Below are positions 17,454-41,781 of a DNA stretch of 64,000 nucleotides, piece by piece (positions within the stretch are counted from its first letter, which is position 1; every line of letters starts with the position of its first letter). A model generated the notes under the pieces. That model ran no database searches, was not told the origin of the DNA, and worked only from the letters and a program-made list of their open reading frames with translations. The position numbers were made by a program, and so were the translations under genes. This stretch comes from an uncultured archaeon (GTDB taxonomy: Archaea; Micrarchaeota; Micrarchaeia; Micrarchaeales; CABMGC01), in NCBI GenBank assembly GCA_963830445.1, contig CAWHMC010000005.1, positions 12,357 to 76,356 of the forward strand, in the 5' to 3' direction.

Positions 17454-17462
17454 GGTCCCACT

Positions 17463-19753: not shown

Positions 19754-21250
19754 ATGGAGGACAAAAACGTATTGCTGAGTTCGTATTTGACGCAGGCCAC
19801 ACTGGTACAGCACCAGAACGACAGCTTCAACAGATTCCTCGACACAGGCATCCCGAAGGCGATGGGCAACCAGAGCCTCATAGAGCCCAGCGTCGAGGGC
19901 TTCGCACTGAAGCTTGGCGCAGTACGAATCGGCAGCCCCTCCATCGTCGAGGCCGACAGCTCGCGCAGGAACATAATGCCCAACGAGGCTCGCCTGCGCA
20001 ACGTCACCTACTGCGCCCCTATCTACATGGAAGTCGTACCGGTCATCCGCGGCATAGAGAAGACGGCCTCCTACGGAGAGGTTTATGTGGGCGATCTGCC
20101 GATCATGGTGCGCAGCAATCTTTGCCACATGAAGACGATGAGCCGCACGCAGCTCATCGAGAACGGCGAGGATCCGGACGACCCGGGTGGATACTTTATA
20201 ATCAAGGGTGTTGAGCGCGTACTCATCGGTCTTGACGACGTCGCCTCAAACCGCATAATCACCACGAAGGAGAAGAAGGGCAGCGAGGTCAAGAGCCGCG
20301 TCTTCTCATCTACACCGGGCTTCAGGGCGCGGTGCGTAGTCACAAGAAACCAGAACGGTGCGTTCGTCGTGGACTTCCCGACGGTGAGCCGCAGCCTGGA
20401 ACTCACTCTGCTTCTGCGCGCGCTGGGCATGCAGATAGACGAGATAAAAGAATATTCAAGTTCACTTCTGCCGCTTAAGAACGACATCCTGCTCAACATA
20501 GAGTTGAGCAGCGTCAACAAGAAAGAGGGCGGCGGCGTCATGACTCCGGCAGAGGCACTGCTGGAGATCGGCAAGCTCGCAGCTCCCGGCCAGGCCAAGG
20601 AGTACCAGATCAAGAGGGCGGAGATGCAGATGGACAGCTACCTGCTCCCCCACGTCGGCGCCGATGAGAAGGCACGCAAGGAGAAGGCGAAGTACCTGCT
20701 CGAGATGGCGAAGAAGTCGACAGCGGTCGCGAACCGCATGGTCAAGCAGGACGACAAGGACCACTACGCGAACAAGCGTACGCGCTTCGCAGGCGAGCTC
20801 ATGGAGGAGCTCTTCGCCTACGCATTCCGATTCTTCCTCAAGGAGGTGAAGTACCAGATCGAGCGCATGAGCGCGAGAGGACGTCGCCTCAGCATGCAGT
20901 CGATAATCAGCCCCGACACGCTCACCGAGAAGATCGCCTACGCCATGGGAACAGGAACCTGGGTGGCGGGGCAGACGGGAGTCTCGCAGGTGCTGGACCG
21001 CACGAACCTGATTAGCACCTATGCACATCTGAGAAGGGTGAAGTCGCCACTGGCGAAGAAGCACCCGCACTTCCGTGCGCGCGACGTTCACGGCACGCAG
21101 TGGGGCAAGATCTGCCCGACAGAGAGCCCAGAAGGCCAGGAAGTCGGCCTGACCAAGTACCTTGCGCTCATGGCCAAGGTGACGGTCGGCGCCGACGAGG
21201 CCATGACTGAGACCGAGATAAAGAAGCTCGCGAGCATCAAGCCGGTTTAG
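19754..21250 (+). CDS. rpoB2: DNA-directed RNA polymerase subunit B'' (Rpo2N, N-terminal half of split B)
   Basis: 498 aa with LVQHQNDSFNRFL, GYFIIKGVERVLI and GLTKYLAL. It ends where the B/B' split occurs in several archaeal lineages. Confidence 0.93.
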   Translation: MEDKNVLLSSYLTQATLVQHQNDSFNRFLDTGIPKAMGNQSLIEPSVEGFALKLGAVRIGSPSIVEADSSRRNIMPNEARLRNVTYCAPIYMEVVPVIRGIEKTASYGEVYVGDLPIMVRSNLCHMKTMSRTQLIENGEDPDDPGGYFIIKGVERVLIGLDDVASNRIITTKEKKGSEVKSRVFSSTPGFRARCVVTRNQNGAFVVDFPTVSRSLELTLLLRALGMQIDEIKEYSSSLLPLKNDILLNIELSSVNKKEGGGVMTPAEALLEIGKLAAPGQAKEYQIKRAEMQMDSYLLPHVGADEKARKEKAKYLLEMAKKSTAVANRMVKQDDKDHYANKRTRFAGELMEELFAYAFRFFLKEVKYQIERMSARGRRLSMQSIISPDTLTEKIAYAMGTGTWVAGQTGVSQVLDRTNLISTYAHLRRVKSPLAKKHPHFRARDVHGTQWGKICPTESPEGQEVGLTKYLALMAKVTVGADEAMTETEIKKLASIKPV

Positions 21251-21258
21251 GTGATATT

Positions 21259-23082
21259 TTGGACAACGCAAAGAAAGCTTATGTATATCTGAATGGACGC
21301 GCAATCGGCACCATAGAGGACCCGAAGGCATTCGTGACAGAGGTACGCTCGGCCCGCAGGAGCGGCAAGATATCGGGAGAGATAAACATCACCCTCGTGG
21401 AAAGGCTCAACAGCGTCAACATCAACACGGACCGCGGCAGGCTTCGCAAGCCCTACATAATCGTCGAAGGCGGGAAGTCAAAGGTGACTCCGGAGATACT
21501 TGATCGCCTCAAGAAGAAGGAGATAAACTTCAACTACCTGATACGCAGCGGCATAGTGGAGTACCTCGACGCAGAGGAGGAGGAGAACGCGCTTGTCGCC
21601 ATCGAGGAGAAGGATATCACCGAGAGGCACACGCACCTCGAGTTCGACCTCGCCTCGATCTTCGGACTCTCCATAAACCTTGCACCCTTCGAAGAGCACA
21701 ACGCATCTGCACGTCAGGCCATGAGCGCGAACTACATGAAGCAGTCAGAAGGACTGTATGTAACGAACTTCAACCAGAGGTTCGACTCCCGTTCCTACAT
21801 CCTGTTCTACCCGCAGGCGCCGATCGTAACGACCATGCCCTACGAGGCTCTTGACATCAAGCGCCACCCAAGCGGACAGAACCTGGTGGTCGCTATCAGC
21901 ACCTACTACGGATACAACATGTCCGACGCAATTGTGCTCAACAGGGCAGCGGTCGACCGCGGAGTCGGACGCAGCATGTTCTACAAGTCCTACACGGACG
22001 AGGAGCGCAGATACCCGGGCGGGCAGCGCGACCGTTTCAAGATTCCATCGGCAACTTCAGAGGGCTACATGGGAGAGCACGCCTATTCAAAGCTCAGCGA
22101 GGACGGAATCATCGAGCCGGAGATGGCGGTCGAGGAAGGCGACGTCCTTATCGGAAAGGTCGCACCTCCGCGATTCCTTGAGGAGAACATAGGCGCGAGC
22201 GGACTGGAGGAGCGCACGCGCGACGACTCGGTGGTGCTGAAGCCGAGCGAGAACGGAGTGGTAGACAGCGTCGTCTTCACGGAGACGCAGGGCGCCACGA
22301 AGACGGTCAAGGTGCGCATACGCAGCATCCGAATTCCTGAGCGCGGAGACAAGTTCGCAAGCCGTCACGGACAGAAGGGAGTGGTTGCGCTCATAGCGGA
22401 TCCGGCAGACATGCCGTTCAGCGAGAGCGGCATAGTCCCTGACCTGCTGCTCAACCCGCACTCCATACCTACTCGACTCACGTTCGGGCACCTGCTGGAG
22501 GAGATAGCGGGCAAGGCGGGCTCAGTAGACGGAAGAAAGGTCGACGGCACCGCATTCACCCAGACCGGCAAGGAGAGGCTTGCGGAGTACAGCGAGATGC
22601 TCAAGGCAGCGGGCTTCGACGAGCACGGAGATGAGATACTTTACGACGGCATGACCGGCCGGCCGTTCAAGGCGAAGATATTCACCGGAGTTGCATACTA
22701 CAACAGGCTGTACCACATGGTCAGCAACAAGATACAGGTGCGCAGCCGCGGCAAGGTGCAGATACTCACCCACCAGCCCACGGAAGGAAAGGCCCGACAG
22801 GGTGCTCTGCGATTCGGAGAAATGGAACGCGATGCACTCATCGGCCACGGCGCGAGCCTGCTGCTCAAAGAGAGGATGCTTGACCAGAGCGACAAGACCA
22901 CGGTGCTCATCTGCAAGACCTGCGGAGGCATGGGCTACCACGACTTCCTGAAGCGCGTGGACGTCTGCCCGCTCTGCGGCAACGGCACCCTGATACCCGT
23001 CGAGATAAGCTACGCCTTCAAGGTGCTGCTTGACGAGATCCGTTCGATGCACATAATGCCGACGGTCAAACTGAAGGAGTGA
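21259..23082 (+). CDS. rpoB1: DNA-directed RNA polymerase subunit B' (Rpo2C, C-terminal half of split B)
   Basis: 607 aa with GDKFASRHGQKGVV, NPHSIPTRLTFGHLLE, RFGEMERDALIGHGAS and a C-terminal Cys4 ribbon (CKTCG...CPLCG). TTG start. Confidence 0.93.
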   Translation: MDNAKKAYVYLNGRAIGTIEDPKAFVTEVRSARRSGKISGEINITLVERLNSVNINTDRGRLRKPYIIVEGGKSKVTPEILDRLKKKEINFNYLIRSGIVEYLDAEEEENALVAIEEKDITERHTHLEFDLASIFGLSINLAPFEEHNASARQAMSANYMKQSEGLYVTNFNQRFDSRSYILFYPQAPIVTTMPYEALDIKRHPSGQNLVVAISTYYGYNMSDAIVLNRAAVDRGVGRSMFYKSYTDEERRYPGGQRDRFKIPSATSEGYMGEHAYSKLSEDGIIEPEMAVEEGDVLIGKVAPPRFLEENIGASGLEERTRDDSVVLKPSENGVVDSVVFTETQGATKTVKVRIRSIRIPERGDKFASRHGQKGVVALIADPADMPFSESGIVPDLLLNPHSIPTRLTFGHLLEEIAGKAGSVDGRKVDGTAFTQTGKERLAEYSEMLKAAGFDEHGDEILYDGMTGRPFKAKIFTGVAYYNRLYHMVSNKIQVRSRGKVQILTHQPTEGKARQGALRFGEMERDALIGHGASLLLKERMLDQSDKTTVLICKTCGGMGYHDFLKRVDVCPLCGNGTLIPVEISYAFKVLLDEIRSMHIMPTVKLKE

Positions 23083-23086
23083 TACC

Positions 23087-25645
23087 ATGCAGGCTGAAGC
23101 AATAAACTTTATACGATTCGGAATCCTCTCACCGGAGGAGATCAAGAAGCTCAGCACCGCGAAGCTCACGGTGCCGGACACCTACAACGAGGACGGCTAC
23201 CCCATAGACGGGGGCCTGCTCGACCAGAGGCTGGGGGTCATAGACCCGGGCCTGGTGTGCAAGACCTGCGGCGCGCGCGCCAAGACCTGCCCGGGCCACT
23301 TCGGCCACATCGAGCTGGTCAGGCCGGTGCTCCACAGCGAGTTCTCCAAGGTCCTCTACGCCATACTGCGCGCGACGTGCTTCGACTGCCACAGGATTCT
23401 CATAGATGACAAGCAGATCGAGAAGCTGCGTGAGATCGACGTGACGGAGGACGAGGCAGCAGCCGTCGTTGCCGCGGAAGACAAGAAGGAGGGCAAAGAC
23501 GAGGCAGCAGAGGAAAGACGCGGCGGGATGACCAACAGCAAGGTCAAGACGAGCAAGAAGTGCCCGCACTGCGGCTCGGTCCAGCCGAAGCTCAAGTTCT
23601 CACAACCAACATTCTTCAACATAGGCGACAGGAAGCTGAAGCCGGACGAGATACGCGACATGGTCTCCCGCATAAGCAAGGAGGACCTCAAGCTTCTCAA
23701 CATCGACCCGCAGGTGAGCAACCCGGCGTGGCTCGTGCTGAGCGCGCTTATCGTGCCGCCGGTGAACGTCCGCCCGTCCATCACTCTCGAATCCGGAGAG
23801 AGGAGCGAGGACGACCTCACCCACAAGCTCGTGGACATCATGCGCATAAACCAGCGCCTGGAGCAGAACATCAATGCGGGCGCGCCGCAGATCATAATCG
23901 ACGACCTGTGGGAGCTTCTGCAGTACCACGTAACCGCCTACTTCAACAACGAGACATCGGGCATCCCGCCGGCCCGCCACAGGAGCGGCAGGGCCCTCAA
24001 GACCCTCGCCCAGAGGCTGAAGGGCAAGGAGGGACGCTTCAGATACAATTTGAGCGGCAAGCGTGTCAACTACTCCGCAAGAACGGTCATCAGCGTCGAC
24101 CCCTACGTCAACATCGACGAGGTCGGAGTGCCCATGGAGATAGCATCGAAGCTCACCGTGCCATTTTACGTAACAGCGTGGAACGTGGAGCACGCCAAGG
24201 AGATGCTCATGCGCACCGCCTATCCGACCATCGTCAACGTCATAGCACGCGACGGGAAGCGCAAGCGCGCAATCGACACGAACCGGGAGGAGCTGGTGAA
24301 GGAGCTCGCGGTGGGCGACATAATGGAGCGCCAGCTGGTCGACGGAGACATAGTCCTATTCAACAGGCAGCCATCGCTGCACAGGATCTCCATCATGGCC
24401 CACAAGGTCAAGGTGCTGCCGGGCAAGACGTTCAGGATAAACTTCTGCACCACCGCTCCGTACAACGCAGACTTCGACGGAGACGAGATGAACCTGCACG
24501 TGCCGCAGACGCTGGAGGCCCAGGCCGAGGCGCGGCTGCTCATGGACGTGAAGTACCAGGTCTTCTCGCCCAAGGACGGCGGAGCGATCATAACGAACAA
24601 CGAGGACGGACTCAGCGGAGTCTTCGAACTCACCCAGGAAAAGACCCTGCTCTCCAAGGACGAGGCCTCCTACCTGCTCGGCATAGCGGGCGTATACGAG
24701 CTTCCGAAGCCGGTGAAGGGCGGCCTCTACAGCGGAAGGGACGTCTTCTCCATGGTGCTGCCACCAGGCATAAACTTCGAGAACAAGTCTGTCAAGATAA
24801 AGAACGGGAAGATAGTCGACGGGATAATAACCAAGGAGTCCTACGGCAAGGGCAACGGCCTGTTCATACGGATAGCGATCGACCACGGCTACGACGTCCT
24901 CAAGGAGTTCATCTTCACCTCATCCAAGCTGGCAGACGCCTACGTCACGCTAGCAGGAGTCACTGTGGGAGTGAAGGAGTACGCGATTGATGAGATTCTG
25001 GAGAAGGAGAGAGCGAAGATCATCACTGAGACGTTCGAGAAGGTCAACGCGCTGATTGAGCAGTACAAGAGCAAGAAGCTCGAGCCGCTCATCGGCTACA
25101 CGCTGCGCGAGTCCCTGGAACGCATCATAATAACAGAGCTCAACATCGCCAGAACGAAGGCGGGAGACATACTCATGAAGCACGAGGGCAACACCGACAA
25201 CAGCGCAGTCAAGATGACCAAGTCCGGAGGCAGAGGAAACGTGCTGAACCTGGAGCAGATGAGCATGTTCCTGGGCCAGCAGGCGACACTGAGCGGAGGC
25301 CGCATAAAGAGAGGATACTACACCAACAGGGTGCTGCCACACATCGCGCCGGGAGAGGTCGGACCAGTTGCTCACGGCTTCGTAACGACGAGTTACTACT
25401 CGGGCATGGCCCCGGTGGAGCTGTTCATGCACGCGGTCGGATCAAGAGGTTCAGAGGTTTACAAGGCGCTTCTCACAGGACGTTCGGGCTACCTGTACCG
25501 CAGGCTCTCCAACGCGCTGCAGGACTATTACGTCAAGAAGGACCTCAGCGTGCGTGATGTCAACAACAACATCATACAGACGCTGTACGGCGGGGACGCG
25601 ATAAACCCGACCATGGCCCAGTTCGAGAAGGTTGATGGTGAATAA
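23087..25645 (+). CDS. rpoA1: DNA-directed RNA polymerase subunit A' (Rpo1N)
   Basis: 852 aa with the zinc motif CKTCGARAKTCPGHFGHIEL, the catalytic NADFDGDEMNLH, and RQPSLHRISIMAHKV. Confidence 0.96.
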   Translation: MQAEAINFIRFGILSPEEIKKLSTAKLTVPDTYNEDGYPIDGGLLDQRLGVIDPGLVCKTCGARAKTCPGHFGHIELVRPVLHSEFSKVLYAILRATCFDCHRILIDDKQIEKLREIDVTEDEAAAVVAAEDKKEGKDEAAEERRGGMTNSKVKTSKKCPHCGSVQPKLKFSQPTFFNIGDRKLKPDEIRDMVSRISKEDLKLLNIDPQVSNPAWLVLSALIVPPVNVRPSITLESGERSEDDLTHKLVDIMRINQRLEQNINAGAPQIIIDDLWELLQYHVTAYFNNETSGIPPARHRSGRALKTLAQRLKGKEGRFRYNLSGKRVNYSARTVISVDPYVNIDEVGVPMEIASKLTVPFYVTAWNVEHAKEMLMRTAYPTIVNVIARDGKRKRAIDTNREELVKELAVGDIMERQLVDGDIVLFNRQPSLHRISIMAHKVKVLPGKTFRINFCTTAPYNADFDGDEMNLHVPQTLEAQAEARLLMDVKYQVFSPKDGGAIITNNEDGLSGVFELTQEKTLLSKDEASYLLGIAGVYELPKPVKGGLYSGRDVFSMVLPPGINFENKSVKIKNGKIVDGIITKESYGKGNGLFIRIAIDHGYDVLKEFIFTSSKLADAYVTLAGVTVGVKEYAIDEILEKERAKIITETFEKVNALIEQYKSKKLEPLIGYTLRESLERIIITELNIARTKAGDILMKHEGNTDNSAVKMTKSGGRGNVLNLEQMSMFLGQQATLSGGRIKRGYYTNRVLPHIAPGEVGPVAHGFVTTSYYSGMAPVELFMHAVGSRGSEVYKALLTGRSGYLYRRLSNALQDYYVKKDLSVRDVNNNIIQTLYGGDAINPTMAQFEKVDGE

Positions 25646-26679
25646 ATGGCAAAAGGACGCAGCAAGTACACAGTTCATTATGGCGAGCCCGTAGGCATGA
25701 TAGCAGCCCAGTCGCTGGGAGAGCCGGGCACCCAGATGATCCTGAGGGCATTCCACTTCGCAGGCATAGAGTCTACCATAGCCACGTCAGGGCTTCCGCG
25801 CATAGTGGAGCTCGTGGACGCGCGCAAGAAGCCTCCCACGCCTATTACCTTCGTCTACCTCACCGGAGACGCGAGGAAGAACTTCGACAAGGCGAGCGCG
25901 GTGGTCAAGAAGATAAGTGAGGTGCGCATGAACTTCATAGTAAAGCGCGCCCTGGAGAACTTCTCCAAGGGCATAATCAAGCTCGTCCTGGACGAGCAGA
26001 TGGTCAGCGCCAACGACCTCACGCCCGGGCAGATCTCCCAGAAGATAGGGAAGCGCATGGGGGCGGAGTCCAAGGTGGACCACGACGGCAACATACTCAT
26101 ACGGCTCAAGACTAAGAACCTCACCGAGATTCGCTCCACGAGCGTCAAGATCATGAAGGAGGTCATCCAGGGTATTGAGGGCGCCGGGAAGGCGATCCTC
26201 CAGCAGGACAAGGATGGCGAGTTCTACGTAATAGCGGCAGGCAGCAACATCAAGGACATCATAGACGTGGACGGCGTAGACAAGTCGCGCCTCTACACCA
26301 ACGACGTCTTCGCCATGTACAGGCAGTTCGGCGTCGAGGCTGCGCGCAACACCATAGTCAGGGAGCTCAGCAACACGCTCAAGGAGCAGAAGATCGGCGT
26401 TGACGACAGGCACCTGATGCCATCGCGGACGCCATGTCCTACGACGGCACCATACGCGGAGTGGGACGGCACGGACTCAGCGGCCAGAAGCGCAGCGTCT
26501 TCGCCAAGGCGGCCTACGAGGAGACGGTGAAGCACCTGGTCAACGCGGCGGCGTTCAGCGAGATTGACAACATGCGCGGCGTAACCGAGAACATCCTGGT
26601 GGGCAAGCAGATACCCCTGGGCACGGGCTCGGTAAGGCTTGCGATAAAGAAGGAGGACGTGCAGAAGGCGAAGAAGTAG
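25646..26679 (+). CDS. rpoA2: DNA-directed RNA polymerase subunit A'' (Rpo1C), interrupted by a 1-nt frameshift near 26420
   Basis: The frame from 25646 reads [28 protein letters not shown]...VDDRHLM and then junk. The conserved continuation [39 protein letters not shown]...GTGS is in the -1 frame and runs to 26679. The span of 1034 nt is not a multiple of 3. Confidence 0.85.
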
Positions 26680-26715: not shown

Positions 26716-29700
26716 CTATTGTACAAGGCGGCTCAGATAATTGGTGGCTGACCCTAGCGCACCATTGATAACATCATCAACCGTGGGCTTGCCGTTGTTG
26801 TAGATGTATTGCTGTGGGGAAGGGGTAGAAACAGTAGCATTTACAGGTGTGGGGATTGTTGTTAGCACTGTGCTTGTAGAGGTAGAAGGAGCAGCGGTGC
26901 TTGCGGTTTGGGCTATCAGTTTAGGCACAGGAACTGGTATGGTAGTGGTAGGAGTTGGTGCACTTACGAAGTAGGACGGGCCTATTACAACCGACGCAGG
27001 CTGAGAGTTGGAGGGTGCGGCCTGGGTTTGAGCCTGAGTCACGAGTACGGTCGCAGCTGTATCATAGATGTCGACACTTATGTCTGACACTGACACGCAG
27101 TAGGTCGTTGTTGAGGATGGATTTACAGTGTATGAAGAAGAAGTAGTGTTGGGTATCAGCGTGTAGGCGTTGCTGTTACAGGAGGGGCTTCCGGTAGAGG
27201 AGTTGGCCGTAGAGAACCAATGATAAGAGTAGGGGGGCGTTCCGCCAACAGCTGAAACTGTAAGTGTGACAGGTTGGCCCTGCGATGCCGTCTGCGAAGA
27301 GGCGGAGAGGCTGGCGTTTAGTGGCGCGGTGGTGGAGGCAGTGGGGTATACTGTAGAAGTTGCAGTTGTGATGGTGCTTGTGACCGCATCGCCAGTTACG
27401 GCCTGGGCGGTCTTGGCGGTGCTCGATACGTTTATTATAGTATTTAAGTAGTATATGTCGCCGCTATTGTTGTTCATTCCATTGTCATAAATTTTTACAC
27501 AGTAACGAGTAGTGGATGTAGGGTGGACTACATACGTCGCCCCGCCACCCTGTGAAGTTTCATTATATCCTTGGTACAGGCACTGCCCTATGTACGAGTC
27601 GCCGGTGGGATTAGTGTACCAGATGTAGTTGAAGGGGGGCGTGCCTCCGATAACATTGACAGTCATGGTCACCGCTTGCCCCGGCTGCACAGTGTAAGAT
27701 GAGACGGAGAGCGTAGCCTTCATGTTCTGAACCTCTCCGAAGAGGTTCAGGGTGTTGTTGTACATACTCTGATTGAAGATGAGCACTGTGGAGTTCATCC
27801 CAGTGACACTGCTTTTTAGAGTATAGTATGCAGGTCCCTGATATCCATGGAGGGAGTATAACGTGGGGTTCGGGTTGGTCAGCCAGGTGTAGTACTGGTT
27901 CTGAGAGGTTATATTATATCCCAATTCTGTAGTGTTAGGGTAGTTGTATATAGCGTAAAAGCCCGAACCTTGCCAGCCGTTGGCTGCAGTACGTAATCCT
28001 ATCCAGGACCAGGTGTTGCCAGTTATTGTTATGGGGATGGTCGTGAACGTGCGGTTGTAGGCGGCCTGAGAGTTGAAGTACCAGCTCAGGTTAAAGAGTG
28101 CGTAGGCATGTGGGAAGTTTGGATATAGCCCGGTGCTGCCCTGCATGTAGTATCCTGGGCCTTGCCAGCCGTTCCAGGTAGGGTAAATATTGATTTTCGA
28201 AGAGGGGACGGCCGTTACCCAGGCAGCCACATCATAAAGATTGTTATTGCTGTCAGTTATTGAAACGCAGTATAGTGTGTTGACTGTTGGGTAGGCCGTG
28301 TAAGACGCCGATGTGGCACCGGTTATTTGAACATAGGCCATATAGGTGCAGTTGCCGTTCTCGAAGCCCCCGTCGTAGGTAGCTGCTGTTGAGAACCACC
28401 TATAGTTATAGGGCGGCGTGCCTCCGGACGCAGAAACACTTAAGGTAAGGGGCTGCCCCACGCTCGCTACGACCCAACTGTTTACCATTGATGTTGATGC
28501 GAGCCCAGCCGGACTCACGGCGTCTGCAAACATAAGAACATGCAATGGAGTTATTGTAGTGCCGGGTTCTGTTGTTGCGTTTGTAGTGGAGGCTGGGGTG
28601 TTTAATACGATTGTCGTGGTGGAGGTGGTCGGGGTTGATGTGATGGTTGTCGCTGCCTGGGGCGCGCTAGCGTAGTCGGCAGTCAGGGTTATTGGTCCCG
28701 TGACATTGATTGACAGCCCGCTCGTGATGCACGGATTTGAAGAGGGAATCGCGCCGCTCCAGGAGGCGAAGTTGTAGTTTGGCAGGCTATCCCAGTTTGC
28801 CGTGCAGAGATAGTTTATCTGGGAGCCGTAGGGCACCTCGACGGACGCCGATGGCGTACCTGGACCTGCACAGGTCTGGCCGGAGGATCCGGCGTAATTG
28901 AAGCATGCGCCCCAGCTGGTTGCGGCCGCGGCAGGAGTTTCTTGGATTGTTACTTGCTCATAGGCGACAGTAGTAGTTGACGTGGTTGTTGTGGTAGAGA
29001 CGGTGGTTGTCGAACTTTGCGTTGTGGTGCTACTGGAAGTAGCTGTATATAACGCTTGGATCGTGAGCGGGCCTGTGATGTTTACAATGTAATTGTAGTT
29101 TATGCAGGGACTTGCCGGGTAGCGGAGGGTTGGAATCCAGTAGTTTGTGTTCTCTACCCAGCCGTAGAAGTTGTAGGCTGGAGAGCCGCCCCAGTTTGAA
29201 GTGCAGAGATAATCTAGATCAGAACCGTATGGAACCTGAATGGTGGTGGATGCTTGGCCGTTTCCCACACACACCTGCCCACTGCTGCCATTATAGTTGA
29301 AGCATGCGCCCCAGCTGTTTGCAGCTGCTTGAGGACCCTCTTCGATCGTGACGGGCTCGTATAGAATTGTCGTTGTAACTATGGGTGCATAATTTGCCAC
29401 GATTGTAAGGGGAGATGTGACATTGATTGATAGCCCGCTCGTGATGCACGGATTTGAAGAGGGAATCGCGCCGCTCCAGGAGGCGAAGTTGTAGTTTGGC
29501 AGGCTATCCCAGTTTGCCGTGCAGAGATAGTTTATCTGGGAGCCGTAGGGCACCTCGACGGACGCCGATGGCGTACCTGGACCTGCACAGGTCTGGCCGG
29601 AGGATCCGGCGTAATTGAAGCATGCACCCCAGCTGTTGGATGCCGCCGAAGGGGTCTCCTGAATAGTGACAAGGACTGGGGCTGACGAGGAAGCGTATAC

Positions 29701-29784
29701 AGGATGGCCAATCATACTGAAGAGGATAAGTGCTAGTGCTAATGAGGCTAGGAGCAGTGCATGGCTAGTACGCAGGATTGTCAT
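26716..29784 (-). CDS. Giant (1022-aa) Sec-signal, repeat-rich, sequon-rich surface or adhesin-like protein
   Basis: Signal peptide MTILRTSHALLLASLALALILFSMIGHPVYA/SSS. Three roughly 95-aa Cys-containing beta modules (WGACFNY.GSSGQ.C...VPYGS..(N/D)YLCT.NW), Thr-rich linkers, and three Ig-like modules with GGTPP(Y/F).Y.W. Confidence 0.75.
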   Translation of the reverse strand: MTILRTSHALLLASLALALILFSMIGHPVYASSSAPVLVTIQETPSAASNSWGACFNYAGSSGQTCAGPGTPSASVEVPYGSQINYLCTANWDSLPNYNFASWSGAIPSSNPCITSGLSINVTSPLTIVANYAPIVTTTILYEPVTIEEGPQAAANSWGACFNYNGSSGQVCVGNGQASTTIQVPYGSDLDYLCTSNWGGSPAYNFYGWVENTNYWIPTLRYPASPCINYNYIVNITGPLTIQALYTATSSSTTTQSSTTTVSTTTTTSTTTVAYEQVTIQETPAAAATSWGACFNYAGSSGQTCAGPGTPSASVEVPYGSQINYLCTANWDSLPNYNFASWSGAIPSSNPCITSGLSINVTGPITLTADYASAPQAATTITSTPTTSTTTIVLNTPASTTNATTEPGTTITPLHVLMFADAVSPAGLASTSMVNSWVVASVGQPLTLSVSASGGTPPYNYRWFSTAATYDGGFENGNCTYMAYVQITGATSASYTAYPTVNTLYCVSITDSNNNLYDVAAWVTAVPSSKINIYPTWNGWQGPGYYMQGSTGLYPNFPHAYALFNLSWYFNSQAAYNRTFTTIPITITGNTWSWIGLRTAANGWQGSGFYAIYNYPNTTELGYNITSQNQYYTWLTNPNPTLYSLHGYQGPAYYTLKSSVTGMNSTVLIFNQSMYNNTLNLFGEVQNMKATLSVSSYTVQPGQAVTMTVNVIGGTPPFNYIWYTNPTGDSYIGQCLYQGYNETSQGGGATYVVHPTSTTRYCVKIYDNGMNNNSGDIYYLNTIINVSSTAKTAQAVTGDAVTSTITTATSTVYPTASTTAPLNASLSASSQTASQGQPVTLTVSAVGGTPPYSYHWFSTANSSTGSPSCNSNAYTLIPNTTSSSYTVNPSSTTTYCVSVSDISVDIYDTAATVLVTQAQTQAAPSNSQPASVVIGPSYFVSAPTPTTTIPVPVPKLIAQTASTAAPSTSTSTVLTTIPTPVNATVSTPSPQQYIYNNGKPTVDDVINGALGSATNYLSRLVQ
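28700..28918 (-). repeat. Intragenic direct repeat, copy A (pairs with 29417-29635)
   Basis: Positions 28715-28908 are identical over 194 bp to 29432-29625 at an offset of 717 nt. The flanks are near-identical. Confidence 0.9.
29417..29635 (-). repeat. Intragenic direct repeat, copy B (pairs with 28700-28918)
   Basis: See copy A. One mismatch occurs at 29431 vs 28714 before the 194-bp identical run. Confidence 0.9.
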
Positions 29785-29813: not shown

Positions 29814-29828
29814 GATATATAGTGCTTT
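29814..29828 (-). promoter_or_regulatory. BRE/TATA-like promoter (AAAGCACTATATATC on the minus strand) of the 1022-aa gene
   Basis: The TATA tract is centred about 34 nt upstream of the ATG at 29784. It shares the AAAGC-plus-TATA layout with other promoters in the window. Confidence 0.45.
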
Positions 29829-29870: not shown

Positions 29871-30461
29871 CTATCTTAGATTCTGCGCTATGGTGTTTAT
29901 TATGCTAGTTTCTTGGGAGGAGGTGAGTGCGCCGTTTGGCTCGTTAAGGGTGACGCTGACGAACAGGTTGTTCTTGTAGCCTGTTAGCGACAGGAAGGCC
30001 GGGGAGCCCGGCGCCGCGATTAATATTAAAGAGTAGGTGAAGTTGTCTGCGGTGCCCGATGCCATCTGCGCCTGGTTTTGAATTTGTGCGAGCTTGGCGA
30101 CTATCGAATTGTAATTGTTCTTTATCATCCCATATTTGCTTACGATGCTTGTATTGACCAGGTGTATACTCTCCTTGAATGAGGTGGGATTGTTTGGATC
30201 ACTGGTCTGGAAGCTTATCGAGGATAGGAGTGTGTAATTATCAGTGCCTGTGTTGTTTGAGGTTAGACATGCACCATTGCAGTAGGTGTAGGTGCCGGTG
30301 CCGAACGTTGAGGAGAGTTGATAGGGTGTTGGCATATCAGGAACTGCGACAGGTGAAATGAAATATAGGACCATGGCCGCAAGAATAATTAGTAGGGCTA
30401 TTATCATAGCGTATACTTTCTTGTTTTTCGAAAGCGGCGTTTTGGAGTTGTTGGAATCCAT
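29871..30461 (-). CDS. Small N-terminally anchored extracellular protein, paralog of 32561-33169
   Basis: TM helix YAMIIALLIILAAMVLYFI. The C-terminal block FTYSLILIAAPGSPAFLSLTGYKNNLFVSVTL matches MTYTLFTISIGGGSGLHLIGYKGDLLISMDV in the paralog. The Met at 30461 lies 11 nt after the upstream stop. Confidence 0.65.
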   Translation of the reverse strand: MDSNNSKTPLSKNKKVYAMIIALLIILAAMVLYFISPVAVPDMPTPYQLSSTFGTGTYTYCNGACLTSNNTGTDNYTLLSSISFQTSDPNNPTSFKESIHLVNTSIVSKYGMIKNNYNSIVAKLAQIQNQAQMASGTADNFTYSLILIAAPGSPAFLSLTGYKNNLFVSVTLNEPNGALTSSQETSIINTIAQNLR

Positions 30462-30472
30462 TTTATCACAGT

Positions 30473-32506
30473 TTATGCGTATGAACAGTAGCCGCCCTGG
30501 GTGGTGATCCATGTTCCTCCGCTTGCCCTACATGATGCCGGCGTGTTTATCGTTGTGGTGAATGGCACGGTAGTGGTTGACACCGTAGTGCTGGTTGTCG
30601 GACATGAGCCCCCGTTCTGTCCGGCCAGTGGGGTGTAGGTTATTGAAGCGTATTCGTAGGAGGAGATGGTGCCGGTTGGGCAAAGGTGGCTTGGGTCGTT
30701 CGTGCCGCAGCCTCCGCCTCCCAACGTTACGTTCAGGTAACTGTACCCTGCTGGATTGAAGTCTTGGTCCGCCTCTGCTATTGCCAGGTCCGACTCTGTG
30801 TCTGTGGCGTTGGACCAGGTCGTCGAGGGATTACTAAAAGTGCTAGGGCCTATTCCAGTAAATGCGTAGGCGACGTCTGGGCCGTATTGATCCTCTACGA
30901 ATCCTATCGCGTGTAGGTGGATGTTTGTGGCGTTCGGATATTGGGTGAGGTCTACCCCGTAGTTCCAGACATAGGATGGTCCGTAGCCTCTCCCTGCTGA
31001 GACCAGAGAGACGGTCTCTTGAGAACAGAGGGGCAGGATGGTGGTGGTTGTGGAAGTGCTCGTGGTTGATGTTGTGCTTGTGGACTGTACAACTAATGCT
31101 GCGGTTGGCGAAAGTACAGGATCGTCCGCTCCATAGCAGAAGTAATAGGTCCCTGCACTTTGAGTTTGAGCGGAGGAGATGGTTTGGGTATTTGTGCAAC
31201 CGCTAGTACATAGTAGAGCAGCTACACTACAAGGACCTGAGGATTGCCCAGAAGCCTGATACCATCCTGAAACGTATGTGCCTGCCGGACCACTCGCATC
31301 GGCAGTTAGTGTTGCAGTCTGCCCAGTGGTTATCGTTGATGGGTATATTGATGGCGTGCCGGCGTAGATTAGGATACTCGTTGTTGTGGTGGAAGCGGAT
31401 GTTGACGTGCTTGTGGATGTTGATGTTGAAGTTGACGTGGAGGTGCTGGTGGAGGTGGAAGTCGACGTCGTTGAAGTGGTCGTTATCGCGACGTAGTTCG
31501 CCTGCAGTGTCATCGGTGCGTTCACCGTGGGCCCTGCGATGCTCGACGGGCATGCGGTGCTCGAGCTGTATCCGTTGCTCCAGCTCGTGAATCCGTAGGC
31601 GCCGTTGTTGTTGTAGTTAGGTTGGGTGCAGATGAATGAGATCGTGGACCCAGAAGGGACGGACTCTGAGACTGAGGATTGCCCTGCGCCGTTGCAGAAC
31701 AAGGCGGTTTGGTTGCTCTGGTAGGTGTACTTGAAGCACGCCTGCCAGTCGGCTCCTACTGCTCCCGGGCTTAGCTGCAGAGTCACCGTGTAGTAGGTTA
31801 TTCCCATGATCGTGGTTGAGGTAGTCGAGGAGGTAGTGCTTGTTGTGGTGGACGTGGATGTGGAAGTCGTTGAGGAAGAGGGTATTGTAGATCCGCCGCC
31901 GGAGACTGTGGTAGTGCTGCTTGAGCTTGATGCTGTGGAGGCAGCAGAGGTTGGGGACGTTGTTGTGGCGGTTGTTGATGTCGTCGATGCCGTTTGTGGC
32001 GCTGGGGTTGGCCCGGGAGCGGATACGACCGCCGTGCCGGCAATCTTTAATGCGGTGAGGGCGCTTGGATTGCTGCAGGCGCCGGTGTTGCACTCCTTGT
32101 ACTGTATGTAGAACTCAGGGTTGACCTGACTCCCCTGGGTCGGGCTGAAGCCTTTTATGAATGTTGAGCAGCTAGCGCTCTGGCCGGGAAGCAGCTGGGT
32201 CGTATTACAGGATCCTGACGCGTACTGGCTGCCGACAGCCGGAGAGACCACATACCCGGTTATCAGCATCGGCGTGCTTTGAAGGTTGGTGAAGAGGGTG
32301 GTGAGGTTGGATCCCAGGGTGTTTGACGTGAAGGTCGTCCTGTAGCAGTCGATCTCCGCTGAGATATAGCAGTAGGAGGAGGTTGATGCTATCTGCCGCT
32401 GCACCGTCGCTATGGCGAAGATTGCTGAGATGGTAAGGATGAGTAAAGCTATCGCCCAGGAGTACTGCATAAGGAATTCTGTTGAGGATTGGCCCTTTAA
32501 ATCCAT
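30473..32506 (-). CDS. Large (677-aa) protein with a class III (prepilin-like) signal peptide, conserved pilin-like N-module and adhesin-like C-terminal domains
   Basis: N-terminus MDLKGQ/SSTEFLMQYSWAIALLILTISAIFAI. A Cys-patterned module is shared with 33180-34856 and 34919-36430. Long Ser/Thr linkers include (ST)n, and a Cys beta-module is related to those in 26716-29784. Confidence 0.75.
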   Translation of the reverse strand: MDLKGQSSTEFLMQYSWAIALLILTISAIFAIATVQRQIASTSSYCYISAEIDCYRTTFTSNTLGSNLTTLFTNLQSTPMLITGYVVSPAVGSQYASGSCNTTQLLPGQSASCSTFIKGFSPTQGSQVNPEFYIQYKECNTGACSNPSALTALKIAGTAVVSAPGPTPAPQTASTTSTTATTTSPTSAASTASSSSSTTTVSGGGSTIPSSSTTSTSTSTTTSTTSSTTSTTIMGITYYTVTLQLSPGAVGADWQACFKYTYQSNQTALFCNGAGQSSVSESVPSGSTISFICTQPNYNNNGAYGFTSWSNGYSSSTACPSSIAGPTVNAPMTLQANYVAITTTSTTSTSTSTSTSTSTSTSTSTSTSTSASTTTTSILIYAGTPSIYPSTITTGQTATLTADASGPAGTYVSGWYQASGQSSGPCSVAALLCTSGCTNTQTISSAQTQSAGTYYFCYGADDPVLSPTAALVVQSTSTTSTTSTSTTTTILPLCSQETVSLVSAGRGYGPSYVWNYGVDLTQYPNATNIHLHAIGFVEDQYGPDVAYAFTGIGPSTFSNPSTTWSNATDTESDLAIAEADQDFNPAGYSYLNVTLGGGGCGTNDPSHLCPTGTISSYEYASITYTPLAGQNGGSCPTTSTTVSTTTVPFTTTINTPASCRASGGTWITTQGGYCSYA

Positions 32507-32560
32507 GAATTAACTATTGATTAAAAACAATTATATATTCATTGCTATTGCGCCGTACAT

Positions 32561-33169
32561 CTAGGATACTTGCGCCACGGCCGTAATGAGGTTGTTCTTG
32601 GTTGCGTTGTTTGTGTAGGGAGGTAGACCGACAACGTCCATGGAGATGAGTAGGTCTCCCTTGTATCCGATAAGGTGCAGGCCAGACCCCCCGCCGATGC
32701 TTATCGTGAAGAGGGTGTAGGTCATCCCATTTATAGTGCCAGACGCGGTTGCCTGTATCGAGCTGGCGCCGGTGTAGTTCTTGAAGATTCTGATCGTGCT
32801 GTTATACCATGCGCTTGAGGAGTAGCGGGCATTACTAGTTGGGTACAGTATAGCCTCGATGGATTTGCCGGTTGTAGGTGCGCTGAAATTGAACAGCGCC
32901 GTGGCGATGTCCATGGGCGTGTTATTGTTATTGATACGTATGTATGCGGATGTTATTTGGGAGCTATAACTGCCGCTGGCGCCCAGTATCCTCGAGAGGG
33001 AGGTTTGGTTTAGGAGTAATGAGGGTGCTGTTGGAATTTGCTGTGGGATGGTGGTGGTCGTGGTGGTGCTTGTTGGAACCGTAGAGGAGAAATGCAGTAC
33101 GAAGCATGCACCTATCGCTATCACTAAAACTATTGCAACAGCCGTATACAAGAGTCTTTCGTTTTTCAT
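32561..33169 (-). CDS. Small N-terminally anchored extracellular protein, paralog of 29871-30461
   Basis: TM helix LLYTAVAIVLVIAIGACFVL, a Thr linker, and the shared C-terminal block. The start lies 10 nt after the upstream stop. Confidence 0.65.
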   Translation of the reverse strand: MKNERLLYTAVAIVLVIAIGACFVLHFSSTVPTSTTTTTTIPQQIPTAPSLLLNQTSLSRILGASGSYSSQITSAYIRINNNNTPMDIATALFNFSAPTTGKSIEAILYPTSNARYSSSAWYNSTIRIFKNYTGASSIQATASGTINGMTYTLFTISIGGGSGLHLIGYKGDLLISMDVVGLPPYTNNATKNNLITAVAQVS

Positions 33170-33179
33170 GAAATCATAT

Positions 33180-34856
33180 CTATATGCTTACAACTGTGCT
33201 GTTGGATTCCAGAATGGCCCAGGCTGTTGAGCCTCCGCCACCGTTAGGATGCACGTATACGTAGCCATATATGCGATAGTTGCCAGCCGGTAGACCGCCC
33301 TCCGTCCACTGGAAGGTAGCTGCCGGACCGCCCTGGCCGGCATTGCTTGCTATTACGCTGTCCGGATCATTGTAATTATTGGCTCCGTTAACTGCGGTCG
33401 GATAGTAATTTCCTTGGACCGGCCCCCAGCATCCGGCGTTCGGAAGGCCCGCCGGAATCTGCGCTTCTAGGTAGAACGAGCCGTAGTAAATGTTTTCTGA
33501 GCTGCGGCTATCCGAGTTCCAGTTGAACGTGAATGTGCCGGAGCTGTAACCGAACGAAGTACTAGGCATGTAGGAGCCATAGGGGCCGAGCCCGTAGTCG
33601 GGAACTAGTATGTATGCGGGGGTGGCCAATGGTGAAGCGCCCGCGCTCTGTATATTGTAAGGCCCTTGCCACCCTCCACCCGGGTTTTGCGGGCCGGGAT
33701 TTCCGCAGCTGTAGGAGTAGCTCACTGTCGTGGTGGTGCTCGATGTGGTGGTTGAGGTTGTCGATGTAGTGTATGTTCCGGTGATTGTGACTGGTCCCGC
33801 AACTGGGCTGCCGACGTTCGGGTCGTATTTGTTGCCCGAGTAGCTGATCCCGCTCCAGCCCTGCAGGTCGTAGGGCCCATTGCCCCACCAGCCCGCGGTG
33901 GCCAGGTAGTTGATTGTTGATCCATAGGGCACATCTACGGTAGCGCTTGGTTGCCCGTAACCTGTGCAGGTCTGTGGCTGGGTTGTCCCGTCAGGCATGG
34001 TATAGTTGACGCAGGCGGCCCAGTAGGTCGAGACTGCGCTCGGGGTTATCTCAAGGGTAACCGGTTCGTATTGTATTGATGTTGTGGAAGTGCTTGAGGT
34101 GGTGCTTGGGGTTGTGCTGCTGGCGAGAGTGGTGGACGTAGAGGTCGAGGTGCTGGTGGAGGTGGTGGTCGAGATTGTACTGCCGACAATGGTGGTTGTG
34201 GCTGTGCTGGTCGACGTGGATGAGGTGGATGTTGAAGCGCTTGTGGGTGGAGGACCGCCGGATACAGTGGTGGTGGAAGTTGTAATGGTTGTGGAGGCCG
34301 TAGACGTTGTTGAGGTAGAGGTGGTGCTACTGCTTGCCGTAGTCACGGGTCTGGGGGTTACCGGTGGCACCTGGAGTATGGCCGTACCGGCTATTCCCAG
34401 CTGCTTCAGGCTGCTGGCGTTCATGCACGTGCCGCTGCACTCCTTGTACTGGACATAGAAAACCGGGTTTAGCTGGGCGCCTACCGCGGGAGTGAAGCCC
34501 TGGACTGTAGAGTAGCAGGCCGCGCTCTGGCCTATCTGCAGGACGGTGGCATTGCATCCGCCCGCGGTGTAGGCCCCGGTGCTCGTCGGAGAGACCGCAT
34601 ACCCGGTTAGGAGTATTGCCGTGTCCTGGAGGTTTGTGAAGCGCGTCGTTATGTTGGAACCCATGGTGTTTAGACTGATGGAGGTCTGGTAGCAGTAGAA
34701 CTCGGGGGAGATGTAGCAGTAGGACGGCACCTGCTGCAGCTGGCGCTGGGCGGATGAGATGAATAGGACGGCTGAGAGGGTAATCACCAGGAGGACGAGA
34801 GCCCAGGAGTACTGAGCTATGAACTCTAGAGAGGACTGCCCCTTGCTCGTGCGCAT
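33180..34856 (-). CDS. Large (558-aa) protein with a class III (prepilin-like) signal peptide, conserved pilin-like N-module and adhesin-like C-terminal domains
   Basis: N-terminus MRTSKGQ/SSLEFIAQYSWALVLLVITLSAVLFI. I chose the Met at 34856 because the 44 upstream codons of the tracked ORF overlap the previous gene's 3' end, while AAAGCTTTATAAGG lies about 34 nt upstream of 34856. Confidence 0.75.
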   Translation of the reverse strand: MRTSKGQSSLEFIAQYSWALVLLVITLSAVLFISSAQRQLQQVPSYCYISPEFYCYQTSISLNTMGSNITTRFTNLQDTAILLTGYAVSPTSTGAYTAGGCNATVLQIGQSAACYSTVQGFTPAVGAQLNPVFYVQYKECSGTCMNASSLKQLGIAGTAILQVPPVTPRPVTTASSSTTSTSTTSTASTTITTSTTTVSGGPPPTSASTSTSSTSTSTATTTIVGSTISTTTSTSTSTSTSTTLASSTTPSTTSSTSTTSIQYEPVTLEITPSAVSTYWAACVNYTMPDGTTQPQTCTGYGQPSATVDVPYGSTINYLATAGWWGNGPYDLQGWSGISYSGNKYDPNVGSPVAGPVTITGTYTTSTTSTTTSSTTTTVSYSYSCGNPGPQNPGGGWQGPYNIQSAGASPLATPAYILVPDYGLGPYGSYMPSTSFGYSSGTFTFNWNSDSRSSENIYYGSFYLEAQIPAGLPNAGCWGPVQGNYYPTAVNGANNYNDPDSVIASNAGQGGPAATFQWTEGGLPAGNYRIYGYVYVHPNGGGGSTAWAILESNSTVVSI

Positions 34857-34885: not shown

Positions 34886-34897
34886 TTATAAAGCTTT
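34886..34897 (-). promoter_or_regulatory. BRE/TATA-like promoter (AAAGCTTTATAA on the minus strand)
   Basis: Lies in the 62-nt spacer between the two prepilin-like genes, about 34 nt upstream of the ATG at 34856. Confidence 0.5.
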
Positions 34898-36459: not shown

Positions 36460-36472
36460 TTTATAAAGCTTT
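36460..36472. promoter_or_regulatory. Palindromic TATA (TTTATAAAGCTTT) in a divergent intergenic region, probably a bidirectional promoter
   Basis: It lies 30-40 nt upstream of the minus-strand ATG at 36430 and about 20-30 nt upstream of the plus-strand ATG at 36490. Confidence 0.5.
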
Positions 36473-40821: not shown

Positions 40822-41781
40822 ATGAGTGCCCCGCAGCCCAGCTCGGCCTCCTTCATAATCATATTTGTAGTGGAGATCATCGCCGTGGCGGCGGTGCTCT
40901 TCGGAGTGAAGAACTTCTACACTGGCAAGAACTTCTACAGGATGCTCGAGGCCTACATAATACTCTTCGGCTCATTCTTCTTTTTCTTCTTCGTTGTCGG
41001 CGATCTGCTGCCCTACATAGACCCGGTGGCGCTCGCTGCGATTTCGTTCGTTCTCGCTGCGGGGGTGTACCTCGCCAAGCGGCGCAGGGTGTGGAACACC
41101 CAGAGCCTGCGCAACATCGTGACCCTTATCTGCAGCGTAGGCGCTGGAGTCTTCATCGGGATAAGCATCGGTGCCCAGTTCGGCGTACTTGTTTTGTACG
41201 CGGTGCTCGGGCTGTTCGCAGTGTATGACTACCTCGCCGTCTTCGTCTTCAAGTTCATGATCCCGCTGGCCAAGCAGGCGGTCAGCATGGATCTCGCGTT
41301 CATGATCGGCTCCTCTGAGATGGAGCTTATGCCGAAGAGTGCGAAGAGCAAGCAGGAGCTCGCCTACAGGAAGGAGGCGCTCGCCAACATCAAGAGCAGC
41401 TACGTCCGGGAGCTGGTGAAAAAGGACAACATGCCCGTGGTCTCCAGCGTGATGCTCGGCAACGGCGACATCATCCTCCCGCTGGCGGTGGCCTCCGGCG
41501 CCTACGCCTACACCGCAAACCTCGGGCTTGCGCTGGTGATAGTGATGGGAGCGGGCATCGGGCTCATCGTCACCTTCGGGATACTGAGGAAGTACAAGCT
41601 TGGGCTCCCGGCCATCCCCCCGATCTTTGCATTCGTCAGCCTTGCACTGGCGGTCTTTGCCGCGGTCACTGGTGCCTATGGCATTATTTTCATGTGCATA
41701 TTCCTACTTGCGGCGGCGGCCTCACTTTTAGCCATGTATCTCACGGTGAAGAGACAGCTCAAAAAAGGCGCGGACAAATAG
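40822..41781 (+). CDS. Presenilin/signal-peptide-peptidase-like GxGD intramembrane aspartyl protease
   Basis: Polytopic membrane protein with YD (AVYDYLAVF), GxGD (LGNGDIILP) and a PAL-like motif (LPAIPP). The frame stays open upstream to 40690 and encodes one more hydrophobic helix there. Confidence 0.65.
   Translation: MSAPQPSSASFIIIFVVEIIAVAAVLFGVKNFYTGKNFYRMLEAYIILFGSFFFFFFVVGDLLPYIDPVALAAISFVLAAGVYLAKRRRVWNTQSLRNIVTLICSVGAGVFIGISIGAQFGVLVLYAVLGLFAVYDYLAVFVFKFMIPLAKQAVSMDLAFMIGSSEMELMPKSAKSKQELAYRKEALANIKSSYVRELVKKDNMPVVSSVMLGNGDIILPLAVASGAYAYTANLGLALVIVMGAGIGLIVTFGILRKYKLGLPAIPPIFAFVSLALAVFAAVTGAYGIIFMCIFLLAAAASLLAMYLTVKRQLKKGADK

Follow-up and report, generated by a model that had tools for sequence, protein, structure and literature searches.

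Here we describe a cluster of surface-protein genes in a 64-kb stretch of archaeal DNA (hereafter the window, meaning all 64,000 nucleotides analysed), in which two modular pilin-like proteins, P2 and P3, are each encoded directly upstream of a small membrane protein, S1 and S2, respectively. The RpoB' protein of the window is 85% identical to that of the uncultured archaeon metagenome-assembled genome (MAG) MFD04780.bin.2.2 and 76–83% identical to those of many Candidatus Micrarchaeota MAGs, and the window is therefore from a Micrarchaeota (DPANN) archaeon.

All genes of the cluster lie on the minus strand, and the order, reading frames and gaps given for them in a first-pass annotation are borne out. 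P2 (33180–34856) encodes a 558-aa modular pilin-like protein from the ATG at MRTSKGQSS, a start backed by a 558-aa database entry and by alignment with P1 and P3; its signal (residues 1–6, MRTSKG↓Q, the arrow marking the putative cleavage point) is followed by a hydrophobic helix (7–37), a Cys-rich beta domain reaching residue ~165, a Ser/Thr/Pro linker, a WGAC domain (residues 261–363; 33768–34076) and a C-terminal domain, or CTD (residues 380–558; 33183–33719). S1 (32561–33169), a 202-aa type II membrane protein, begins 10 nt past the P2 stop codon (gap 33170–33179). P3 (30473–32506) encodes 677 aa of similar design, with a signal at residues 1–5 (MDLKG↓Q), a pilin-type domain to ~165, a Ser/Thr linker, a WGAC domain (238–339; 31490–31795), an Ig-like domain (378–474; 31085–31375) and a CTD (491–677; 30476–31036), and S2 (29871–30461), a 196-aa type II membrane protein, begins 11 nt past its stop codon (gap 30462–30472); the S2 start at 30461, and not a longer ATG at 30512, is backed by its closest relative, P0007. 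The two P proteins had been called giants, a label that is relative: it fits by the standard of pilins and not by that of surface proteins. Two further genes complete the cluster, neither with an S partner: P1 (34919–36430) encodes a 503-aa modular pilin-like protein with a KGQAATEF signal, a pilin-type N-terminal domain and DUF2341 (PF10102, E = 1.6e-7), and D (26716–29784) encodes a 1022-aa surface protein that has a Sec signal instead of a pilin signal and contains Ig-like domains besides three WGAC domains. The first and third WGAC copies of D (residues ~38–135 and 277–375) hardly differ in sequence, hinting at a recent internal duplication or at gene conversion.

A C-terminal block shared by S1 (GMTYTLF...LIGYKG, 32633–32725) and S2 (FTYSLI...LTGYKN, 29946–30041) had been noticed in the first-pass annotation, and exactly this block is recovered by BLASTP with composition adjustment (43% identity over 37 aa, E = 2e-5). 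Without composition adjustment, the two proteins align over their full length (23.6% identity over 208 aa, E = 2e-8); the outer domains alone give z = 6.6, the observed score being reached by 0 of 2000 shuffles; and a hidden Markov model (HMM) of the S1 clade matches S2 at E = 5e-4, with the relative P0010 matched strongly from both clades. By sequence comparison, S1 and S2 are distant but real homologues, and pairwise alignment finds homology between P2 and P3 as well.

The extent of the S family was established by an exhaustive HMMER search with a profile of S1 and S2 against 1.84 billion representative proteins (E <= 0.001), which returned 12 proteins: S1, S2, the low-complexity protein P0011, and nine true relatives (P0007–P0010 and P0012–P0016), all of 197–240 aa and aligned to the profile over their entire length, with E values between 3e-26 and 4e-6. 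Word-indexed protein searches with S1, S2 and the N-terminal profile of P returned only the query itself or the single match P0006, and scanning genome, metagenome and viral contig collections with the S1-clade motif gave no confirmed S locus. The members fall into clades, namely S1 with P0008, P0009, P0013 and P0014 (32–47% identity within the clade), S2 with P0007 (41%), P0010 with P0012 (32%), and P0015 with the S protein of the related contig L010 (86%); P0016 stands alone as the most distant member, and identity between clades is 19–29%. The common layout comprises a short positively charged N-terminus, a hydrophobic helix of 20–22 residues, a Ser/Thr/Pro-rich linker, a domain of ~150 aa and a C-terminal amphipathic helix, and the alignment of 11 members (~200–240 aa) displays the outer-domain motifs G-[MF]-x-Y-[TS]-[LIF] ... 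G-[YW]-[KNS]-G.

Two familiar classifications of S were discarded: the [KR]-[GA] cleavage motif expected of a pilin is not conserved in the family, and neither is the lipobox-like IGAC of S1 that would mark a lipoprotein. Weak matches to the S HMM were also set aside. In the gene at 13995–14792 of the window and in L010 at 3476–4336, the only substantial match spans model positions 14–83, which take in the transmembrane (TM) helix, the linker and little more; the matches in L008 (1287–1613) and L046 (1–546) were not counted as S homologues; and in two L047 open reading frames hhalign aligns the Ser/Thr linker only. A second unannotated family is recognisable here (window 13995–14792, minus strand; L010 3476–4336; L013 2692–3462; L008 1287–1613), which has an S-like layout of signal-anchor helix, Ser/Thr linker and ~190-aa conserved domain, with an outer domain unrelated to that of S, and which related MAGs conserve upstream of their RNA polymerase operon. 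A gene with a similar N-terminal part comes immediately after an S gene in L008.

Each S protein carries one N-terminal hydrophobic helix, as first described (S1 residues 6–27, 33089–33154; S2 residues 16–35, 30357–30416). In S1 it is followed by a Ser/Thr linker (residues ~28–54) and an alpha/beta outer domain (55–202), and in S2 a Cys-x3-Cys pair lies within the first hairpin. Positive charges are found only before the helix, S1 and S2 contain 2.6–3.0 N-glycosylation sequons per 100 aa as against 0–0.83 in 11 cytosolic proteins of the window, and a Cys pair is conserved in several members; taken together, these features point to an N-in/C-out orientation with an exposed and probably glycosylated outer domain. 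An AlphaFold2 model of S1, built on the 11-sequence alignment, has a helix at residues 3–26, a disordered linker and an alpha-beta3-alpha-beta4-alpha domain, with pLDDT ~80–90 over residues 50–202. Foldseek places this model nearest to TiME (7cu8, E = 4.9e-4), the PknH sensor domain (4esq, 7.3e-4) and an Rv0999 orthologue (4tmd), with further matches to DcrB (6e8a), PsbP (2xb3), LpqN (6e5d), 1tu1, 6xrf and Mog1 (1eq6); PA0094, EagT6, SciW and TplEi, a T6SS (type VI secretion system) immunity protein, are also among its structural neighbours. These matches have E values of 5e-4 to 5e-2, probabilities of 0.75–1.0 and TM-scores of ~0.5 over the full length, which includes the 50 disordered residues.

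The outer domain of S is thus predicted to be a Mog1/PsbP/PknH-sensor-like alpha-beta-alpha sandwich, in which an antiparallel sheet is flanked by helices, a fold shared with the Mog1, PsbP and DUF1795 proteins. Members of this fold group are described as protein-interaction, assembly or stability factors; many work outside the cytoplasm as accessory or binding proteins with a membrane tether or lipid anchor, or serve as effector chaperones (PMC4524185, PMC12881460). At the sequence level S resembles none of them: S1 and S2 have no match in Pfam, NCBIfam or PDB sequences, and none of the 11 members matches PknH_C, DcrB, LpqN, PsbP or DUF1795 in Pfam at E <= 10, nor anything among NCBIfam or PDB sequences. 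The S proteins differ further in being archaeal, in their signal-anchor helix and Ser/Thr linker, and in having a pilin-like partner. The first-pass annotation recognised no family for S1 and S2, which holds for the sequences and not for the fold, which is a known one.

The neighbourhood check proposed in the first-pass annotation came out in favour of a P–S link, as S genes lie immediately downstream of P-type genes in contigs of Micrarchaeota type from relatives: for 9–10 of the 12 distinct S genes, a P-type gene in the same orientation ends 3–42 nt before the S start (counting two pairs in the window, two in L005, and one each in L010, L043, L006/L007, L004, L008 and L009). The closest genome found, the Micrarchaeota-type MAG represented by L010 (RpoB' 85% identical), encodes a 1299-aa P protein with a pilin module like those of the window and SprB/PKD Ig-like repeats, followed after 9 nt by its S gene. 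In L005, two P genes in succession are each followed by S, after 24 and 23 nt, and in the short contigs L004, L007, L008, L009 and L043 the 3' end of a P-type gene is followed by S after 18, 12, 42, 3 and 9 nt, respectively. P genes with other C-terminal architectures come without S, namely P1, those of L011 and L012 (DUF2341/LamG type), P0006, and distant P genes in L049–L060. In contigs of assembly ERZ25039529, the P genes (L005 161–1472; L006 7177–9988 and 10797–13634) are frameshifted in or just after the repeat and CTD regions, which reflects either assembly errors in low-complexity sequence or pseudogenisation.

Sequences upstream of the genes fit the same pairing. Direct reading finds TATA-like elements ~29–34 nt ahead of the start codons of P1, P2, P3 and D, all on the minus strand: TTTATAA at 36461–36467, ~34 nt upstream of the P1 ATG and in a context, AAAGCTTTATAA, common to P1 and P2; TTTATAA at 34886–34892, within the 62-nt P1–P2 spacer and ~33 nt ahead of the P2 ATG; AATATATAA at 32531–32539, ~29 nt upstream of the P3 ATG in the 54-nt S1–P3 spacer and followed by the T-run TTGTTTTT; and CTATATATC at 29814–29822, upstream of D. 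These are putative promoter elements, and no TATA-like element stands at ~29–34 nt upstream of S1 or S2; the earlier description of one such element ahead of each P+S pair agrees with this reading. Since the gaps are 3–42 nt everywhere and TATA-like elements occur only upstream of P genes, co-expression of P and S is plausible; we infer that P2 is co-transcribed with S1 and P3 with S2, and S is probably translationally coupled to P. To call this co-expression obligatory, as was originally done, goes a step too far, as a promoter could lie inside the P coding sequence.

The pairing might in principle have no functional basis at all, if P and S came to lie side by side only because surface-protein genes evolve fast in tandem arrays. 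The locus is indeed a surface-gene cluster (P1, P2, P3 and D), and two S genes have no upstream P; nevertheless, order, strand and a gap of 3–42 nt recur in at least 9 pairs, which include S proteins of only 20–28% identity and lie at different chromosomal sites, and S1 and S2 lack a TATA-like element of their own at the usual spacing. We consider mere adjacency very unlikely.

The upstream partner in the pairs of the window is a modular pilin-like protein. P1, P2 and P3 begin with the motifs MDQIKG↓QAATEF, MRTSKG↓QSSLEF and MDLKG↓QSSTEF, each followed by ~25 hydrophobic residues, and the motif [KR]-G/A↓Q-[SA]-[SA]-x-E-F is kept in L010, L005, L006, L011, L012 and P0006. Judged by motif, the P proteins start like archaeal proteins with class III (prepilin-type) signals, at which they would be cleaved. 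The N-terminal 165 aa of the three proteins are 42–55% identical (P1 versus P2 and P3, 42–43%), and an AlphaFold2 model of this pilin module, from P3, has a helix at residues 8–36 and a beta domain of seven strands (mean pLDDT 73.8); six Cys of the beta domain are conserved, and the architecture is consistent with a pilin fold without establishing one. P2 and P3 are 46% identical over their first ~380 aa (E = 6e-100) in BLASTP with composition adjustment and low-complexity filter both off; default BLASTP gives no significant match between them because of composition correction on Ser/Thr-rich sequence. A P protein thus consists of a class-III-type signal, a pilin module of helix and Cys-rich beta sandwich, a Ser/Thr-rich stalk that is probably glycosylated, a beta-type WGAC domain of ~100 aa (single in P2 and P3, three copies in D) and a variable CTD. 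The CTDs of P2 and P3 are rich in Gly, Ser, Tyr and Thr and have one Cys near each end, which might form a disulfide. A 184-aa protein encoded elsewhere in the window (54437–54988, minus strand) bears the class-III-type signal YKAQ↓AALDFMISYGVAIVIIV, shows weak similarity to the pilin module of P in an HMM comparison (E = 2.6e-5), has no Pfam match, and could be a major pilin of the filament that would carry P1–P3.

Proteins of this general kind have precedents. Bacteria are known to make modular pilins that display adhesion modules, and the modular pilins or tip adhesins PilB and PilC of S. sanguinis and CofB of enterotoxigenic Escherichia coli resemble P in combining a pilin-type signal and module with grafted C-terminal binding modules (PMC8179133). 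In archaea, class III signal proteins bearing DUF2341, the domain also found in P1, have been proposed as PilY1-like adhesins at the pilus tip (PMC4858521), and the genome of one cultured Micrarchaeota member has genes for a single prepilin peptidase and for two type IV pilus systems (PMC5498576). Large pilin-like adhesins are to be expected in DPANN archaea. The layout of P2 and P3 is similar to that of CofB, in which beta-repeat and beta-sandwich modules stand behind a flexible linker. CofB has a partner, CofJ. The P proteins depart from these examples in that their pilin module is recognised by none of the pilin HMMs searched in Pfam and NCBIfam and their stalk is a very long Ser/Thr low-complexity region, and none of these precedents is described with a dedicated membrane-anchored PsbP-like partner encoded directly downstream.

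Which part of P the S protein belongs with is suggested by their patterns of variation. S1, P0009 and P0013 (32–45% identical) follow CTDs of the P2 type (46–54% identical; the P2 CTD itself is 46–52% identical to those upstream of P0009 and P0013), S2 and P0007 (41%) follow CTDs of the P3 type (65%), and P0015 and the L010 S protein (86%) follow CTDs of the L010 type. The CTD types have no BLAST similarity to one another. The pilin modules are distributed otherwise: they are 42–55% identical within the window and L010 and 76–80% within L005 and L006 (both from assembly ERZ25039529), with only 18–27% between these two groups although the CTDs can be 52% identical, and the P2 module shares only 25% identity with its counterpart in the L006 protein of the same CTD type. 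Such a pattern points to pilin modules evolving in concert or to an exchange of cassettes. On the sequences compared, S clades track the CTD type and not the pilin module, and CTD+S thus appears to behave as a cassette behind a lineage-specific pilin module; within orthologous pairs, S diverges faster than the CTD (38–41% versus 52–65% identity).

These relationships also bear on how the two pairs arose. An ancient tandem duplication of the pair, as first proposed, is supported by the homology of S1 to S2 and of P2 to P3, and by the gene order of L006, which reads S (P0014), P with a P2-type CTD, a gap of 12 nt, S (P0009), P with a P3-type CTD, and contig end; the order of P2-type CTD, S1-clade protein and P3-type CTD being common to L006 and the window, the two-pair arrangement is older than the divergence of their lineages. 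Between the CTDs of P2 and P3 there is no detectable similarity by BLAST, so that the event was not a simple duplication of a whole pair, and the CTDs have either diverged beyond recognition or been swapped. In L010, a single P+S pair (15457–19959, minus strand) occupies the same site as the window cluster, between rpoA'' and the Ser-hydrolase/MetRS genes, with another CTD and S type where the window has P1, P2–S1, P3–S2 and D. The locus thus behaves as a variable cassette site and is a hot spot of surface-gene turnover.

The uncoupling of S from the pilin module speaks to one alternative, according to which S would serve that module or a membrane step (insertion, retention or a stator-like role, with a layout like that of FlaF/FlaG), or would be a general co-expressed envelope protein. 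The archaellum proteins FlaF and FlaG, which accompany a type IV filament, are small monotopic membrane proteins, each with a hydrophobic helix at the N-terminus and a beta-rich domain on the outside. The N-terminal helix of S could pack against that of P, S likewise has the layout of a monotopic anchor with an outer beta-rich domain, and all S proteins are of one family although the CTDs differ. Yet P1 and the proteins of L011 and L012 share the pilin module, have other C-terminal architectures and lack S, and the S clades do not follow the pilin-module type. FlaF and FlaG are absent among the best 50 Foldseek matches listed; the predicted S fold is alpha/beta and PsbP-like, not the beta-sandwich of FlaF/FlaG, and S is encoded with individual adhesin genes and not in an assembly operon. 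We regard a role tied to the pilin module or the membrane as unlikely.

The fold family of S, its topology and its tight coupling to P make a partnership with the CTD the best-supported reading. That S binds its own P, in whatever way, seems to us fairly probable; the narrower proposal that it is the cognate extracytoplasmic partner of the adhesin CTD, a factor for its holding, folding or docking, is one that we favour only tentatively. Under this proposal, S would be inserted N-in/C-out by its single signal-anchor helix, and the Ser/Thr linker would display the Mog1/PsbP/PknH-sensor-like domain on the outer face of the membrane, where it would bind the CTD of the P protein encoded just upstream. 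S would keep the adhesive CTD folded and masked beside the membrane for as long as P, held by its own N-terminal helix, awaits pilus building or surface display. P would then be built into a pilus, presumably and probably at the tip, or be displayed for contact with a host or partner cell, and CTD+S would constitute an exchangeable specificity cassette behind the lineage-specific pilin module. The roles of anchor, chaperone or assembly factor that the first-pass annotation suggested for S remain the leading, if unproven, class of explanation.

Several points weigh against this proposal. Contact between S and the CTD is itself a putative step, and the co-variation of the two may be mere linkage, because the CTD is encoded by the DNA next to S. 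As the CTD types are dissimilar and S is one family, a shared CTD fold or a generic binding mode has to be assumed. Two S genes stand apart from the pattern: P0014 is not preceded by a P gene, following instead an Nre gene, with a P gene starting 64–115 nt after it, and P0016 has no nearby P and lies between PemK-type genes and an LD-carboxypeptidase gene. With regard to the pilin-like nature of P, pilin and class III signal HMMs of Pfam and NCBIfam (PF04021, PF07790) match neither the isolated N-termini at E <= 10 nor the full proteins at E <= 1, a negative that weighs weakly because the models are short and the sequences divergent; Foldseek matches the pilin-module model best to Ig-like sandwiches of a generic kind and ranks the archaeal type IV pilus subunit 8fk7_A only 49th (E = 0.022). 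Finally, no pilus-assembly genes (prepilin peptidase, type IV pilus ATPase/TadC) were found within the 64-kb window.

The cassette-like behaviour of CTD+S invites a different interpretation, in which P would be an effector displayed on a pilus or on the surface, its variable CTD would harm neighbouring or host cells and the membrane-anchored S protein would neutralise it at the surface of the producer, as in an effector/immunity system. In CdiA-CT/CdiI and Rhs-CT/RhsI, as in P–S, a variable C-terminal module and a tightly linked small downstream gene move as a unit, and the P–S locus likewise varies between close relatives, a cassette feature that is not specific to toxins. The architecture of a conserved N-terminal trafficking module, repeats or stalk, variable CTD and small linked gene resembles that of polymorphic toxin systems, and further support can be drawn from the exchange of CTD+S as a unit behind different pilin modules, the other cassette at the same chromosomal site in L010, the faster evolution of S relative to the CTD, the "orphan" S genes P0014 and P0016, and the presence of TplEi and Eag chaperones among the structural neighbours of S. 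A distant P-type protein in L047 (3–1910, plus strand) ends in a pretoxin-HINT-like (PT-HINT) domain (PF07591, E = 1.4e-4), although this match is below the Pfam cut-off and the protein encoded after it resembles S no further than the Ser/Thr linker by hhalign. That protein (L047 1926–2807), ~13 nt past the PT-HINT gene, has a TM helix and a Ser/Thr linker, and a second protein of this kind is encoded at 3911–4474, 4 nt past a P remnant.

Other evidence runs counter to an effector/immunity role. The P2 and P3 CTDs match no toxin or enzyme family, and their composition and terminal Cys resemble those of binding modules rather than enzymes. Known unrelated toxins have unrelated immunity proteins, whereas all S proteins form a single family, and the trafficking module of P is a pilin-like signal and not one for the type V, type VI or type VII secretion system (T5SS, T6SS or T7SS). 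PADLOC models have no match in P1–P3, S1, S2 or D, a result by which we also discarded a defence-system reading. We therefore judge it improbable that S is an immunity protein, and put the same low probability on a broader version in which the CTD+S units are the specificity cassettes of a pilus-borne DPANN contact system, either a counterpart of effector/immunity systems or a cassette-coded code for host or kin recognition. In such a system, to which we give no higher probability, a type IV pilin module would deliver a variable domain acting as effector or ligand, which the anchored PsbP-like S protein would neutralise or recognise.

A related alternative makes CTD and S a ligand-receptor pair, with the CTD at the pilus tip binding the outer domain of S on sibling cells in cassette-specific self-recognition or aggregation. 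Both partners are predicted to be exposed on the cell surface, cassette types differ between close relatives, and the fold family of S includes extracellular sensor and ligand-binding domains such as that of PknH. Aggregation and binding in trans would, however, have to be postulated, a pair of this kind would not need tight translational linkage, and DPANN cells are thought to attach to hosts and not to each other (PMC5498576, PMC11329633). We consider self-recognition of this sort less probable than either the effector/immunity or the membrane-step alternative, and partnership between S and the CTD of its own P remains the reading that we prefer.

The chromosomal setting of the cluster is that of housekeeping genes. 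It is flanked on one side by the split rpoB, rpoA' and rpoA'' genes (19754–26530, plus strand) and on the other by genes for a Ser-hydrolase, MetRS, MCM and an SPP-type protease, and further out the window encodes gyrase, Lhr, EF-1alpha, CysRS, SHMT, ThyA, DnaK/GrpE and glycosyltransferases. A viral or mobile origin of the cluster was rejected in view of these flanks, a GC content of 0.53–0.60 like that of the surroundings, and viral contigs without matches. The presenilin/SPP-type intramembrane protease (40822–41781, plus strand; PF06550, E = 2.3e-8) is encoded 4.4 kb from P1; enzymes of this type cut N-in/C-out helices, the orientation predicted for S, so that any link to S would be hypothetical. 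Three glycosyltransferase genes lie together at 50254–53990 (PMT_2-type, GT2 and GT9) and might encode enzymes that modify the P, S and D proteins, which are rich in Ser/Thr and in sequons. Outside the cluster, a 547-aa protein with a CARDB adhesion-related domain (6568–8211, minus strand; E = 8e-5) is likely another surface protein, and a 356-aa protein with a RelA/SpoT synthetase-type domain (58022–59092, minus strand; PF04607, E = 2e-15) is encoded in this DPANN archaeon.

In the literature and libraries searched, the S family (~10 clusters among the 1.84 billion representatives) appears to be undescribed, as do its near-obligate position after one class of modular pilins and the cassette behaviour of CTD+S. 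The lifestyle of DPANN archaea such as Micrarchaeota is one of attachment to other archaea, and to our knowledge few of the molecules that mediate or specify this contact have been identified. The P CTD and S offer a concrete pair of candidate interaction partners at the symbiont surface, and the variable cassette locus beside the RNA polymerase operon could underlie host or partner specificity. If S is an accessory factor of modular pilins, it would represent a new type of component in archaeal type IV filament biology; if it is instead an immunity or recognition protein, polymorphic contact systems would be extended to DPANN archaea.

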